From the sequence record KC295538: DNA of 64,000 bases. One strand, given 5' to 3'. This DNA is from Escherichia phage PBECO4. Below, piece after piece: positions 3,592 through 64,000 of the stretch (its first letter is position 1; the number at the start of each line of letters is the position of its first letter). Position numbers and translations under genes: made by a program. Below the pieces are notes generated by a model that was not told the origin of the DNA, did no database searches, and was given only the letters and a program-made list of their open reading frames with translations.

Positions 3592-4557
3592 TTAGAAATC
3601 TTCGTATTCGTACCCTTTTGCAAGTACTAGCTTCTTAAGCTTTTGCATAGCTTCACTGTACTTTCGGTGTATTGATGAACGGGATTTAACATATTTTCCA
3701 TTATCATCAACAAAACCATTATCAGCAATCTCACGAAGCGTTTCAGGTTCATATTCACCTAGACCATGAACACGCTGGATAATCTCACGTTCTTTAGTAC
3801 TCAATTCGTTGGTCAGTTCATTGATAGCATAACGCAAAGGTGCACGGATACTATCAACATTGAGGTTAAAATCAGAAGCAGGTGAATGAATAATGTCACC
3901 TAATGTACCATCTGTAACACCGTCTAATGGTGCATCCAGCGAAGTGTATTCGCTTTGAAATAACAAACAATTATTAACATGCTGAATCTCAATCCCAGTA
4001 CCCTCTGAGATTATTTCAGGAGTTGGGCGAACACCATGTTTACGCATATATTCCTGACAGAATCTTTTTACTTTGATCTTATGAACACTCATATAACGTG
4101 GGAAGTGTACCATATAGTTAGCGTCAGAACTTTCGTTATAGACTGTCATGTAAATACTAGAAGAAGCATAGGTAATGAACTTAACATTCTTATTAAGATC
4201 AAAGGTTTTTAGTGCTCTCATGAACCCCTCAACACCATATGAAATCTTATCTTCAAATGGGATATAACAAGTACATTTACTTGCTACATCAATAATCAGT
4301 CCATAATTGTAACGAACTAACAGTTCAGTGTTTTTCTTTACATTGATACCAGCTTGAATATCACGAATTAGATCTTCATTGGAAACATTTGGTGGTCGCT
4401 TAAGTGTAATATTATATTTGAAACTGCTTTGTACTTTACCTTCATTTTCATCTTTATCTTCAACGAAATCTAAGGCTTCTAGTGTGTTGACTTCTTCATT
4501 AGCAAAACATTCATCCAGAACTTCTTCGGCAATTGTATTTAAATCAAGCTTTTTCAC
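3592..4557 (-). CDS. sigma-70 family RNA polymerase sigma factor
   Basis: 321 aa; region-2-like GVEGFMRALKTFDLNKNVKFITYASSSI and region-4-like HTH EREIIQRVHGLGEYEPETLREIADNGF...SRSSIHRKYSEAMQKL. Confidence 0.8.
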   Translation of the reverse strand: MKKLDLNTIAEEVLDECFANEEVNTLEALDFVEDKDENEGKVQSSFKYNITLKRPPNVSNEDLIRDIQAGINVKKNTELLVRYNYGLIIDVASKCTCYIPFEDKISYGVEGFMRALKTFDLNKNVKFITYASSSIYMTVYNESSDANYMVHFPRYMSVHKIKVKRFCQEYMRKHGVRPTPEIISEGTGIEIQHVNNCLLFQSEYTSLDAPLDGVTDGTLGDIIHSPASDFNLNVDSIRAPLRYAINELTNELSTKEREIIQRVHGLGEYEPETLREIADNGFVDDNGKYVKSRSSIHRKYSEAMQKLKKLVLAKGYEYEDF

Positions 4558-13087: not shown

Positions 13088-13532
13088 TAGTAACTCCTAT
13101 TTTTTTATATTTTAAAATTAAATCACTCACGGCTTTCATTAGCTTATATGGAATAGCTAACTCTTGAACAGTACTTTCCATAAAATGTTCTTCTTCTGTA
13201 TCATAAAATGTTGAACTATAGTGTTCACAATCATCTATACTATCATAAAAAGAAGACGTAAGTTTATCAACAATGACAGTGATTTGTTTGTCAGTTTTGG
13301 CACATCCTACCTGAACGGTTAATCCAATATCATCAGCCTCTACACGAATTATAAACGAATTATTAGTATAGTTCAGCCAACAATCTTCACCAAAGTATAC
13401 AACACTGTGTTTCTTCTGAAATGAAGTTGCGGTGTTAAGAACACCAATAACAACATCAACTGTTTTTTCATTTAAAATATTAGACATTTTTATTCCTGCT
13501 TCGTATGTTTCGTGAAATCTCAAATATTCCAT
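13077..13532 (-). CDS. EExxFxQxST-motif family paralog
   Basis: C-terminal TEEEHFMESTVQE. Confidence 0.55.
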   Translation of the reverse strand: MEYLRFHETYEAGIKMSNILNEKTVDVVIGVLNTATSFQKKHSVVYFGEDCWLNYTNNSFIIRVEADDIGLTVQVGCAKTDKQITVIVDKLTSSFYDSIDDCEHYSSTFYDTEEEHFMESTVQELAIPYKLMKAVSDLILKYKKIGVTNAI

Positions 13533-13908
13533 TCAACTGCTCAACAGTTAAACCCTGTAAATCGTAAACTGTTGATAGTTGAAAGAACATCTCTGAATCT
13601 ATAGTATCATGTTCAATTGGAAGACTCAAGAGGTCTTTATTAATAAAATAATCATATGTTCGAATTGTCAAAGAATCACCAAAGATATCAATGTAAAATT
13701 TCGGAACATTATGTAACGAAACATCTATTAATATGTTTTCAGCATATCTACACGAAATTTTAGAATTATTTTTATAAGATTGGTATGAAAAATTATAAGG
13801 TTCATCGACCAATGTGTATGATGAGGTATCACCTTCGGAAAATATTACACCACATTCAATAAGATGTGTTAACGACTTAGGTGGAATTTTTAACATTTCA
13901 CTTCCCAT
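13480..13908 (-). CDS. EExxFxQxST-motif family paralog
   Basis: C-terminal DSEMFFQLSTVYDLQGLTVEQL. Confidence 0.55.
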   Translation of the reverse strand: MGSEMLKIPPKSLTHLIECGVIFSEGDTSSYTLVDEPYNFSYQSYKNNSKISCRYAENILIDVSLHNVPKFYIDIFGDSLTIRTYDYFINKDLLSLPIEHDTIDSEMFFQLSTVYDLQGLTVEQLNGIFEISRNIRSRNKNV

Positions 13909-14326
13909 CCTTACTCATATTACTACGGATCACCCCACTAAGAAAACATATTTTCCTTAATGTATCATAACTGATATTTGTAAGATCATGTACAAAATTC
14001 AACTGCAAGTACATTTCTTCAGTTAATTGATTAAATGTATCATCAACATGAATGTTAGTATGTTCCGTTATATCTATTTCTATATTATTTTCCCAAATAT
14101 CAATGCTAACAGCATAGTCTGATGTATGTCTGGATTGAACTGAAATAAAAATATTATTACTGTTGTATAATGTCTCTGTGTATCCATTCAAAAATGATCC
14201 AACGACAACATCAAAAATGCCATCTCTAATTGGGTTTTTTGTTTCAAACGTATCACTACAAACTTGACGGTATACAATGTCAACATACTTATCAATTAAA
14301 GTAAACAAATAACTCATTGCATTCAC
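13898..14326 (-). CDS. EExxFxQxST-motif family paralog (diverged)
   Basis: C-terminal LTEEMYLQLNFVHDLTNISYDTL. Confidence 0.5.
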   Translation of the reverse strand: MNAMSYLFTLIDKYVDIVYRQVCSDTFETKNPIRDGIFDVVVGSFLNGYTETLYNSNNIFISVQSRHTSDYAVSIDIWENNIEIDITEHTNIHVDDTFNQLTEEMYLQLNFVHDLTNISYDTLRKICFLSGVIRSNMSKDGK

Positions 14327-45242: not shown

Positions 45243-45887
45243 TTATTTGTAATATTTACCTAGTACTGAATAAATTTTCAGTCTAAGTTCTGTCCAGTTT
45301 TCGATATATTCAAAACCACTATGATTCTTATACATAGTATTATGAGAACATCCCATCATAACTGATGGAATACCAAGACCCATAGCAGTTTCAATATTAT
45401 TGATATAATCATCAATCATTAGTTTTACATCATATCGTGTTTGTAAATCCTCTAATGCTTCTTTCTTTGATTCATTCATTTCTATGATAATAATCTCATC
45501 AAAGCAGTTTTCACCAAATTCACGCATTAGATTTACATTTCGTAAAACTTCACCATAGCCTTTTTTACCACATTTTGTGAGTACTACGAATTTTTCTTTA
45601 TGAAAACGATCACGTAGCTCTTGTACAATATCAACTGTATTTGGTTCGACTGGCTTTAACAACCCAAACAAATATGATTGTTGGTTGAACTGTTCAAGAA
45701 TCTTTTTAACTTCAGGTTGAGGAACACCCAACCAGTCTGATAAATCATATTCTAATGGGTATGGTGTTGATGGTGTGATATTATAAGTTTGTTTTACAAA
45801 CTCAGAAAGCATACCCATATGGTCCAATAGAACTTCATCACAATCAAAAACTATACAACGTGGTTTCATTACATGTTCCCCGAACAA
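45243..45887 (-). CDS. HAD-superfamily hydrolase (possible nucleotidase/phosphatase)
   Basis: 214 aa; motif I VFDCDEVLLD near N-terminus, motif IV-like MIDDY. Confidence 0.5.
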   Translation of the reverse strand: MFGEHVMKPRCIVFDCDEVLLDHMGMLSEFVKQTYNITPSTPYPLEYDLSDWLGVPQPEVKKILEQFNQQSYLFGLLKPVEPNTVDIVQELRDRFHKEKFVVLTKCGKKGYGEVLRNVNLMREFGENCFDEIIIIEMNESKKEALEDLQTRYDVKLMIDDYINNIETAMGLGIPSVMMGCSHNTMYKNHSGFEYIENWTELRLKIYSVLGKYYK

Positions 45888-46858
45888 ATTAGGTCAATCT
45901 CACACAGTAAAGCACTAAGATTCATTTCACGGTCTGATACTGTTGCTTGCTTAACAACTGCATCACGAATTTTAACTTTAATCTTCATCAGTGTGATTTC
46001 ATCAGTACTGAACATTTCAGCATTTCTGTACAAGTAAGAGAAAAATGCATCCATCTCATCATCAGGGATATTTTGTACAATTTGTTCACGCATTTGGCGA
46101 ATGTTGCCTGCCTTTAATGCTTCAACAATTGCAGTACGATACCCTGCTGAATTTTCAATACTATCTTCAAGTTTTACTAGCTTACCATCAACAACTGAAC
46201 TTTGCAATACGTTTAGTGTTTTACGGAAATCAGGATAGGAAGCATTGATGTACTTTTGAACTTGTTCAACACTATCATCACTACTCAAATCAACACCTTC
46301 TGCTAGAAGAATATTATAAATTCGAGTCATGAATTGTTCCATATCATGCTTTTCGATTGTAATAACTTGAACACGAGAAATGATAGGTTTTTGAATTTTA
46401 TGTGGTTCGTTACTTGTTAAAATAAAGCGAGCATTTTCATGATAGTCTTCCATTACACGTTTCAAACTACCTTGTGCTTTGTGGTTCATCTGCTCCATTT
46501 CTTCAAGAACAAAAATACGATATCTACCAAAACATGATAGCTTTGCTGCGGCATCGATTTTGTCACGAACAGCATCAATGCCTTCATCGGACATGTTAAG
46601 CGTGGTCACATCACTTGGATCAAGGTGTCCATTTTGAACTAGTCCATTAATTAGTACTTTGATCGCAGATGTTTTACCAGTTCCTGCTGGGCCAAAAAAC
46701 CCAATATGTGGAATGTCACCAGTCTTAATCCATTCTTCCATTTTCTGGCGTAGTGCATCGTTTTTTGATACATAATCTTCCATTGATTGTGGGCGATATT
46801 TTTCAGTCCATAGTGTGGTCATTTGTATTTCCTTATGTGTACGTGTTATAGAATCCAA
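45869..46858 (-). CDS. clamp-loader AAA+ ATPase (T4 gp44-like)
   Basis: 329 aa; EKYRPQ, Walker A GPAGTGKTS, Walker B-like FVLEEM, SRV sensor; alignable to T4 gp44 from memory. Confidence 0.8.
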   Translation of the reverse strand: MDSITRTHKEIQMTTLWTEKYRPQSMEDYVSKNDALRQKMEEWIKTGDIPHIGFFGPAGTGKTSAIKVLINGLVQNGHLDPSDVTTLNMSDEGIDAVRDKIDAAAKLSCFGRYRIFVLEEMEQMNHKAQGSLKRVMEDYHENARFILTSNEPHKIQKPIISRVQVITIEKHDMEQFMTRIYNILLAEGVDLSSDDSVEQVQKYINASYPDFRKTLNVLQSSVVDGKLVKLEDSIENSAGYRTAIVEALKAGNIRQMREQIVQNIPDDEMDAFFSYLYRNAEMFSTDEITLMKIKVKIRDAVVKQATVSDREMNLSALLCEIDLICSGNM

Positions 46859-47171: not shown

Positions 47172-47498
47172 TTAACGACCAAAGGTTAGCATTTTAGTTC
47201 GTGGATCTTCATCTGAAACTAAACTAACTGCGGCTGGATAATCAACCAAGTTTAATTCAATACCATCAACTTCAATAGTTCTTGACCATCGACCATGATC
47301 AATTAAAATCCATTGACCTTCTTTAATATCAGTAATGTCTTCGCCTACAGAATAAACTTTTGCCCAGCGAGAACGAATACCTCTAATTTTACCGTCATCG
47401 TTTGTTAAAACGATACCACCTGCTGTTTTGCGTTCACCATGTTCCAGTTCAGTTACCAGTACTTTACCTTTACATGCAGTCATTACTTTATTAGTCAT
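47172..47498 (-). CDS. GroES-like co-chaperonin (T4 gp31 analogue)
   Basis: 108 aa; ERKTAGGIVLT matches the GroES ETKSAGGIVLT segment; overall GroES-like layout. Confidence 0.7.
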   Translation of the reverse strand: MTNKVMTACKGKVLVTELEHGERKTAGGIVLTNDDGKIRGIRSRWAKVYSVGEDITDIKEGQWILIDHGRWSRTIEVDGIELNLVDYPAAVSLVSDEDPRTKMLTFGR

Positions 47499-47506
47499 TT
47501 AATATA

Positions 47507-47851
47507 TTACTCCTGATCTTTGGTTCTAGCTCGACGTGGTGCTTTCTTCTCTTCAGAAACCTCAGCTTCTTGTTCTTCGGGCTTAACTTCAAAACTCTCA
47601 TCATCCCATACTTCATCCGTACCATGTTCAGTACTATGAAGTTGATGTTCAGGGATATAATCAGGAATTTGCATTTCTCGTTCTTTTTCTTGAATCAACT
47701 CTTCACGAGTTTTAATAATTGTTCCACCTGAACCGATTTTATCACCACGTGCGTTTAAATTAGCATTACCTAATGCTACCTGATGTTGATTTTGGTACTT
47801 GAGCATATCCATGTCAATTGTTGTACCACGATAAGTTGTATGTTTAGACAT
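47507..47851 (-). CDS. hypothetical protein
   Basis: 114-aa ORF; acidic C-terminus. Confidence 0.5.
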   Translation of the reverse strand: MSKHTTYRGTTIDMDMLKYQNQHQVALGNANLNARGDKIGSGGTIIKTREELIQEKEREMQIPDYIPEHQLHSTEHGTDEVWDDESFEVKPEEQEAEVSEEKKAPRRARTKDQE

Positions 47852-47914
47852 ATCAAAATCCTTTTATTGTATGTGTGATATAAGCCTACAATAAACATTA
47901 TATCACATGTTTTT

Positions 47915-48433
47915 CTACCATTTCAAAAATTCGTTAACATCAAGTTCGTACTTCAATGAATCTACCATATGTAGTCCAATCAAAAACAAACAGTATGATG
48001 CAACAGAGCTTCCACGACCTAGACCCCAAAAGATCTCATTTTCTTCCATATAATCAACAAGCCATATCATACATCTTAGTAGCTTTGTCATATTATAATA
48101 TTCATATAAATCAAGTTCATACTCAACACGTTTTCGTGCTTCATCGGATGTGCATTTTTGTAAGAAAAAGTCACGCAGATTTATATTGTCGTATACTGGA
48201 TCATATCGCCACAGTTCATGATTTTTATCATGCTCAATTGTATAATCCAGCATACGTTGTTCTAAGCCAAATTTTTTACAGTTATCATTGAATTTCAACC
48301 TTTCAGGTTCATCAATTTCCTGCAATTGTAAGTACTGGATATCTGCACCGCAATTGATTGCATAAACAACTGCGTTAAGATTACATTTCACATCACCATT
48401 GGGACTTATAAATCTGTTTCCTTGTACTTTCAT
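47915..48433 (-). CDS. hypothetical protein with DnaE (Pol III alpha)-like segment
   Basis: 172 aa; C-terminal IWLVDYMEENEIFWGLGRGSSVASYCLFLIGLHMVDSLKYELDVNEFL resembles the DnaE segment ...GPGRGSGAGSLVAYAL.ITD.DPLEFDLLFERFL. Confidence 0.45.
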   Translation of the reverse strand: MKVQGNRFISPNGDVKCNLNAVVYAINCGADIQYLQLQEIDEPERLKFNDNCKKFGLEQRMLDYTIEHDKNHELWRYDPVYDNINLRDFFLQKCTSDEARKRVEYELDLYEYYNMTKLLRCMIWLVDYMEENEIFWGLGRGSSVASYCLFLIGLHMVDSLKYELDVNEFLKW

Positions 48434-48704
48434 TTTTCTTCTTCTGGGCCTCTTCGTTGTCAGTTAGATATGAATCCATATCGAAGATACATGGGTCTTC
48501 TTCGTCATAAACAGTTTTTTCTTTTTGTCCTTGGCGAAGTTCTAGTTCAGCATAACATTGATTTAAGACAGTTTGCATATTACCAATAATCATGTCGCTT
48601 AGGCCAGCAGCACGAGCAGAAGTTAAACGCATTGACTGTTCATTAATTTTTAACTGTAGTTCTTTTTCCGTCATTCCAGACGGGTCAAAAAACGGATTAA
48701 ACAT
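48393..48704 (-). CDS. hypothetical protein
   Basis: 103-aa ORF. Confidence 0.45.
   Translation of the reverse strand: MFNPFFDPSGMTEKELQLKINEQSMRLTSARAAGLSDMIIGNMQTVLNQCYAELELRQGQKEKTVYDEEDPCIFDMDSYLTDNEEAQKKKNESTRKQIYKSQW

Positions 48705-63880: not shown

Positions 63881-64000
<120 letters not shown>

Follow-up and report, generated by a model that had tools for sequence, protein, structure and literature searches.

Bacterial DnaE and PolC (PF07733 and PF17657; PDB 2HNH, 2HPI, 5FKU and 3F2B) are built on a Pol-beta-like palm with a GS motif, and carry three catalytic aspartates together with RPG and KSHxxxY finger motifs. In the phage system considered here, these features are split over two genes. 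One product, the N-unit, has the palm and the GS motif in common with the bacterial enzymes. The other, the C-unit, has the aspartates and the finger motifs in the same linear order. While DnaE holds the GS motif and the three aspartates in a single polypeptide of about 1160 aa, the phage module amounts to about 384 aa in two polypeptides and is devoid of the PHP, thumb, clamp-binding, HhH and OB regions and of most of the fingers. Some of the dNTP-contact residues of bacterial DnaE are not conserved in it either. Cyanobacteria likewise use two distant genes for DnaE, which is interrupted in the fingers, and a split intein ligates the halves. In the phages, the interruption sits within the palm, after the GS motif and before the DxD strand, and no intein accompanies it.

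The phage system was described as a split 'minimal' Pol III alpha of group 2.2 jumbo phages by Iyer, Anantharaman, Krishnan, Burroughs and Aravind (2021, Viruses 13:63, PMC7824862), with an N-terminal NTP-binding unit and a C-terminal Mg2+/template-binding unit encoded by distant genes. According to these authors, the split Pol III alpha accompanies a family B polymerase and may cooperate with it, and an active polymerase formed from the two units is their prediction as well (PMC7824862). In the CBB genome paper, the 172-aa protein CBB_328 is a "truncated" Pol III alpha, and in the Atu_ph07 paper gp316 is a Pol III alpha. The main text of the PA5oct omics paper mentions neither unit, and our literature search found no post-2021 paper on, or experimental study of, the split polymerase.

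Here, we analyse an N-unit gene in a window of Escherichia phage PBECO4 (KC295538), by which we mean the whole 64,000-nucleotide stretch of DNA. The gene belongs to the same family and the same phage group as the system of Iyer et al., and every feature described by them was independently reproduced. The family was thus already known, and the finding, of low novelty, rediscovers in a previously sequenced phage what had been predicted in print. What we add is a residue map onto E. coli DnaE, a fusion test with its control, structure-based confirmation, selection statistics, the exclusion of an intein and the finding that each unit has a conserved neighbourhood of its own.

The N-unit gene and its DnaE homology

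The N-unit is carried by a jumbo phage of group 2.2 (RaK2/121Q-like, T4-core-bearing) that encodes a family B polymerase of its own. Over its whole length, the window aligns at 89-99% identity, in reverse orientation, with positions 28,688-93,819 of phage 121Q, a RaK2-like member of the genus Asteriusvirus with a jumbo genome of about 350 kb. Gene 610 of 121Q encodes the family B polymerase, which is T4 gp43-like, and T4 core homologues are catalogued in the CBB genome paper. A 2.5-kb stretch around the N-unit matches Escherichia phage SHEFM2K at 100% identity and is nearly the same in SP27, G17 and others, and the N-unit region is 93.6% identical to 121Q. The N-unit protein is 100% identical to those of 121Q, SHEFM2K and SP27. 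Its counterparts are named gp56 in 121Q, CBB_328 in CBB and ORF162 in RaK2. The features of the locus are as follows.

45869..46858, minus strand: T4 gp44-like clamp-loader AAA+ ATPase (annotations of relatives; conserved N-unit neighbourhood)
47172..47498, minus strand: GroES-like co-chaperonin (annotations of relatives; conserved N-unit neighbourhood)
47507..47851, minus strand: 114-aa ORF, phrog_14844, without a Pfam match (synteny directly downstream of the N-unit)
47915..48433, minus strand: N-unit of the split minimal DNA Pol III alpha (ORF list; phrog_11127)
47921..48160, minus strand: palm segment, N-unit residues 92-171 (PF07733 profile positions 16-95 of 260)
48005..48019, minus strand: GRGSS, N-unit residues 139-143 (GS motif, equivalent to E. 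coli G361-G365)

The N-unit ORF starts with ATG, encodes 172 aa and ends with a TAG stop codon at 47917-47915, two residues past "EFL". Its palm segment corresponds to about residues 288/323-393 of E. coli alpha. Within it, GRGSS139-143 (codons GGT CGT GGA AGC TCT) maps onto GRGSG361-365 of E. coli DnaE and represents the GS, or triphosphate-binding, motif of the Pol-beta-like nucleotidyltransferase fold. This motif is unchanged in 34 N-unit homologues, down to 31% identity, and together with its flanks it comprises the best-conserved residues of the protein. EFL168-170 maps onto RFL390-392, with a near-invariant Glu in N-units at the position of E. coli R390. Ahead of the palm match lie 91 residues, and a Pfam search at E<=10 found no PHP domain in the N-unit. 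Family alignments and the PDB profile search found no DnaE sequence counterpart for the N-terminal 90 residues.

The sequence-only reading had picked out residues 123-170 of this ORF as DnaE-like, with the proviso that profile searches might return no DnaE similarity. Pfam DNA_pol3_alpha (PF07733) matches the N-unit with E=1.9e-9 and 37.9 bits (gathering cut-off 23.9 bits), and phrog_11127 covers it in full (171/171, E=3e-87). Searched against all PDB sequences, a profile of 19 N-units retrieved nine Pol III alpha chains and one unrelated match (E=0.61); the best match (E=0.0026) falls onto E. coli residues 288-393. In line with this, hhalign aligned the N-unit with E. coli DnaE over residues 323-395 at a probability of 87%. 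A phmmer search of PDB sequences with the single N-unit protein was uninformative, reaching DnaE at E=1.7, and the match emerged with the family profile. The AlphaFold2 model of the N-unit, computed from a 34-sequence alignment, has a pLDDT of 87.8, and its top eight Foldseek matches in the PDB are all Pol III alpha, with probabilities of up to 0.94. With PF07733, the PDB profile, hhalign and the fold search all matching DnaE, the resemblance is confirmed as real.

The size and end point of the protein are conserved. All 120 homologues listed from a search of 5.8 billion proteins have the same domain and nearly all measure 171-187 aa, the few shorter ones lying mostly on short contigs. An HMM search of 1.84 billion cluster representatives gave 479 matches at E<=1e-30 and roughly 2,600 more between 1e-30 and 1e-3. 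The best 150 of the 479 are 156-196 aa long, with the HMM match reaching the C-terminus. In alignments down to 31% identity, the homologues end within a few residues of "EFLK". Between this N-unit gene and that of 121Q, 20 of 20 nucleotide differences are synonymous (dN/dS 0), and dN/dS is 0.01 against fEgEco12 and 0.06 against RaK2. The gene is under strong purifying selection, and the ORF is not a broken gene.

A distant partner gene, the C-unit

Downstream of the N-unit, all frames of the 64-kb window are free of further DnaE-like sequence, and neither E. coli DnaE nor the C-unit matched the window in tblastn. This is explained by the divergence of the sequences and by the location of the C-unit gene, which according to the 121Q alignment lies about 14.8 kb past window position 64000. 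The gene was thus out of sight of the sequence-only reading, which had correctly reported that the neighbouring ORFs hold no continuation. We verified the C-unit, at its distant locus, in the near-identical genomes of 121Q, SP27, JP4 and BAU.Micro_ELP-22, all of which encode the same N-unit protein as the window.

In 121Q, the C-unit is gene 16 (13,282..13,920; 212 aa; phrog_11778), which both RefSeq and phrog_11778 label "DNA polymerase" and which adjoins a primase and a gp41-like helicase. The protein opens with MQDSTDSKHYRKARTDIDIDF and carries the catalytic DxD motif, TDIDIDF, near its start. Mapped onto E. coli DnaE, D16 and D18 of the C-unit correspond to D401 and D403, HNSG48-51 to HAGG511-514, K80 and D82 to K553 and D555 (the third catalytic Asp), IRPGK148-152 to FRPGP638-642 and KKPH187-190 to NKSH757-760. 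In E. coli alpha, D401, D403 and D555 serve as the catalytic carboxylates. Across 41 homologues, down to 41% identity, the invariant residues are D16, D18, D20, H48, G51, K80, D82, R149, P150, K152, K187, H190 and Y194. The finger motifs are reduced to IRPxK and FKKxHxxxY. By its motif spacing, the C-unit has lost about 78 residues (thumb) and about 80 finger residues relative to E. coli DnaE, and its C-terminus corresponds roughly to E. coli residue 782.

In a profile search of the PDB, Pol III alpha (of M. tuberculosis and E. coli) was the only family matched by the C-unit, with E=0.01 and four collinear segments. The fingers family PF17657 gave a sub-threshold match in 11 of 17 C-unit members; the other sub-threshold Pfam match, SipL, is attributed to chance. 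PF07733 did not match the C-unit alone in three distant phages. Against the lone E. coli DnaE sequence, a template without an alignment, hhalign gave a probability of 2.6%, which we regard as uninformative for want of that alignment; the region aligned does span the third Asp and the RPG motif. The AlphaFold model has a pLDDT of 93.3, and its top 12 Foldseek matches in the PDB are all Pol III alpha, the top eight with probabilities of 0.99-1.00. Since the sequence statistics of the C-unit alone are modest, its assignment leans jointly on the motifs, the fold search and the fusion test described below.

Two further observations concern the surroundings and the annotation of the C-unit. In 121Q, gene 9, located 4.3 kb upstream, encodes a DnaQ/RNase T-type 3'-5' exonuclease (L005 8128..8946; PF00929, E=6.7e-15). 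The Atu_ph07 paper describes this exonuclease as conserved among RaK2-like phages. It is a candidate proofreading partner of the mini-Pol III, although the latter lacks the PHP domain to which epsilon binds in bacteria. In Atu_ph07 (NC_042013.1), the RefSeq CDS of the C-unit (FDI40_gp074) starts at locus position 4067 and drops the catalytic DIDIDF. The open frame runs from an ATG at 3986 (L013 3986..4561; MKNIPDIDIDF...), suggesting that the RefSeq start codon is likely mis-annotated.

Proposed pairing of the two units and rival explanations

A tblastn search placed the N-unit in 92 phage records and the C-unit in 94, and the records of both are spread almost identically over the genera. The two genes are never adjacent, and lie 31 kb apart in 121Q, 34 kb in RaK2, 44 kb in PA5oct, 116 kb in SCTP-2 and 182 kb in Atu_ph07. 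Each has a conserved neighbourhood of its own. The N-unit block keeps the order N-unit, small ORF, GroES, clamp loader and phosphatase in 121Q, RaK2, fEgEco12, Phosso, XacN1, PA5oct and Atu_ph07. The C-unit block comprises the C-unit, a small antisense ORF, a structural protein, the primase and the replicative helicase (121Q, PA5oct and Atu_ph07).

When the two units were fused in silico and scored with PF07733, the end of the profile match moved from position 94-95 to 110-112, across the junction and into the DxD strand. The score rose from 37.9 to 45.0 bits in Asteriusvirus (+7.1), from 36.9 to 48.8 bits in PA5oct (+11.9) and from 36.7 to 52.9 bits in Atu_ph07 (+16.2). In the control, fusion of the N-unit with the adjacent 114-aa ORF changed the score by +1.0, +4.0 and -0.3 bits, the last value being that of Atu_ph07. 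The break between the units falls inside one structural domain, the palm. Both halves are homologous to DnaE, collinear at the break, co-occurring, conserved and under selection.

Taken together, we propose that the N-unit is one half of a two-gene mini C-family polymerase, whose halves come together around a composite active site and serve as an accessory enzyme; we give this reading a probability of roughly 85%. Here, the N-unit would supply the first part of the Pol-beta-like palm and GRGSS, that is, the nucleotide-triphosphate-binding half, and would stop where the strand with the catalytic aspartates should start. The C-unit, opening with that strand, would contribute the DxD motif, the third catalytic Asp and the reduced fingers. 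As there is no intein at the break, any reconstitution must be non-covalent, and the two proteins may associate in this way to rebuild a single composite active site. The heterodimer would then be an accessory nucleotidyl-transferase or DNA polymerase beside the T4 gp43-like family B replicase, with a role in, perhaps, repair, strand-specific synthesis or another process.

R390 and R709/R710 of E. coli DnaE are among the residues with which the bacterial enzyme contacts the incoming dNTP. The fingers segment LRRAMGKK, which holds R709/R710, is absent from the C-unit. With R390 replaced by Glu, R709/R710 missing and no thumb, clamp-binding or OB regions, processive templated synthesis is not assured. 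An unlikely alternative is that, in place of a conventional templated DNA polymerase, the mini-Pol III is a heterodimeric nucleotidyl-transferase of the Pol-beta fold with another job, perhaps with regulated assembly and the 114-aa protein as a third partner. Such a job could be gap-filling or repair, primer handling near the primase and helicase, or the making of a non-DNA product. The 114-aa protein, with a loose mimic of the DxD strand at its N-terminus, would possibly act as a competing or modulating partner of the N-unit.

Other explanations treat the N-unit as something other than half of an enzyme, give it a different second half or join the halves covalently. The sequence-only reading had offered three, a gene fragment, a domain recruited for another function and one piece of a split gene, of which the last holds up, with the DxD motif, third Asp and fingers encoded about 31 kb away and outside the window. 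That the ORF is a decayed remnant, a pseudogene or a sequencing frameshift of a full-length dnaE may be suggested by its abrupt stop after about 80 recognisable DnaE residues and by the 'truncated' label in the CBB genome paper. We regard this as extremely unlikely. Homologues with as little as about 31% identity, and the best 150 of the 479 metagenomic-family representatives, share the size of the protein and the position of its stop. Every one of the 20 substitutions relative to 121Q is silent, more distant phages give dN/dS values of 0.01-0.06, and the window lacks downstream DnaE-like sequence in any frame. With hundreds of diverse homologues sharing one end point under purifying selection, the suspected frameshift, for which re-sequencing of the locus had been suggested, is refuted. 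A stand-alone domain that functions independently of the C-unit, in nucleotide binding, in regulation or in docking on the replication and chaperone proteins encoded next to it, would account for a gene that never lies beside the C-unit and is always linked to the small ORF, GroES and clamp loader, and for an N-terminus of 90 residues that has no DnaE sequence counterpart. Against this stand the catalytic-site GS motif and its flanks as the best-conserved residues, record counts and a genus distribution closely matching those of the catalytic half, a break within a single structural domain and pieces that are collinear with the Pfam model. The recruited-domain option is thus disfavoured and, in our view, distinctly improbable.

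If the continuation were instead encoded next door, the 114-aa ORF would be the obvious place. It directly follows the N-unit in all genomes that we examined, among them the very distant Phosso, XacN1, PA5oct and Atu_ph07, phrog_14844 occurs in 82 phage records, and the loosely DxD-like motif in its N-terminal 'RGTTIDMDM', at about the right distance, could provide the DxD strand. Fusion also stretches the PF07733 match slightly in two of the three phages. We nevertheless rejected this ORF as the continuation of DnaE and consider it very unlikely to be one, since fusion adds far less to the score than with the true C-unit and even lowers it in Atu_ph07, since the acidic motif varies (VNME in Phosso, VDVE in Atu_ph07) and since the ORF has neither a Pfam match nor the third Asp or finger motifs, its remainder being charged and of low complexity. 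A split intein that ligates the halves by protein trans-splicing, as in cyanobacterial DnaE, would suit two distant genes, the arrangement also found for cyanobacterial dnaE. In the phages, 1-15 residues follow EFL in 34 N-units and 1-18 residues precede DxDxD in 41 C-units, against about 100 aa for IntN and about 35 aa for IntC, and scans of the N-unit, the C-unit and the fusion found no intein Pfam match. The flanks are too short for IntN and IntC, which excludes trans-splicing and leaves this explanation a next to negligible probability.

If the two-gene polymerase that we favour is indeed active, it would be the smallest known C-family polymerase core, at about 380 aa, and a second polymerase in phages that already have a T4-type replicase. 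In this case, it would also offer a natural minimal model for the working and evolution of the bacterial replicase's Pol-beta-like active site, as Iyer et al. argue. For annotation, the labels 'DNA polymerase III alpha subunit' or 'truncated' for the 172-aa gene, and 'hypothetical' or 'membrane protein' for its partner, should give way to paired N-unit and C-unit labels.

Minor features of the locus and its relatives

The 114-aa ORF carries a conserved N-terminal 'S.RG..[VI][DN].[DE]' motif and 'NARGD', followed by a charged low-complexity tail. The phage has two GroES-like co-chaperonin genes, one at 47172..47498 on the minus strand and the other corresponding to 121Q gene 615 (345,999..346,298), near the family B polymerase. 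Between about 16,600 and 20,600, the window aligns with 121Q in short blocks of 89-96% identity with gaps, at a tRNA-gene cluster (about 72-76 kb in 121Q), while the remainder of the window aligns in long blocks of 95-99% identity. This region appears to be a local mosaic or an indel hotspot.

The start of the N-unit gene (48393..48433) shares 41 nt with the end of an upstream hypothetical ORF of 103 aa (48393..48704, minus strand). The same overlap is annotated in 121Q and RaK2, and its recurrence suggests translational coupling. Near the gene, no intrinsic terminator was found, and promoter-like sites are no commoner than in shuffled sequences. In the 63 nt that separate the N-unit stop codon from the next gene lies a perfect 10-bp inverted repeat, TGTGATATAA / TTATATCACA, at 47874-47883 and 47898-47907 with a 14-nt spacer. 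The repeat overlaps a strong sigma-70-like site on the minus strand (47926->47897; TTGAAA-18-TATAAT with an upstream TG, 11/12 matches). This element could be a promoter, an operator or an RNA hairpin.
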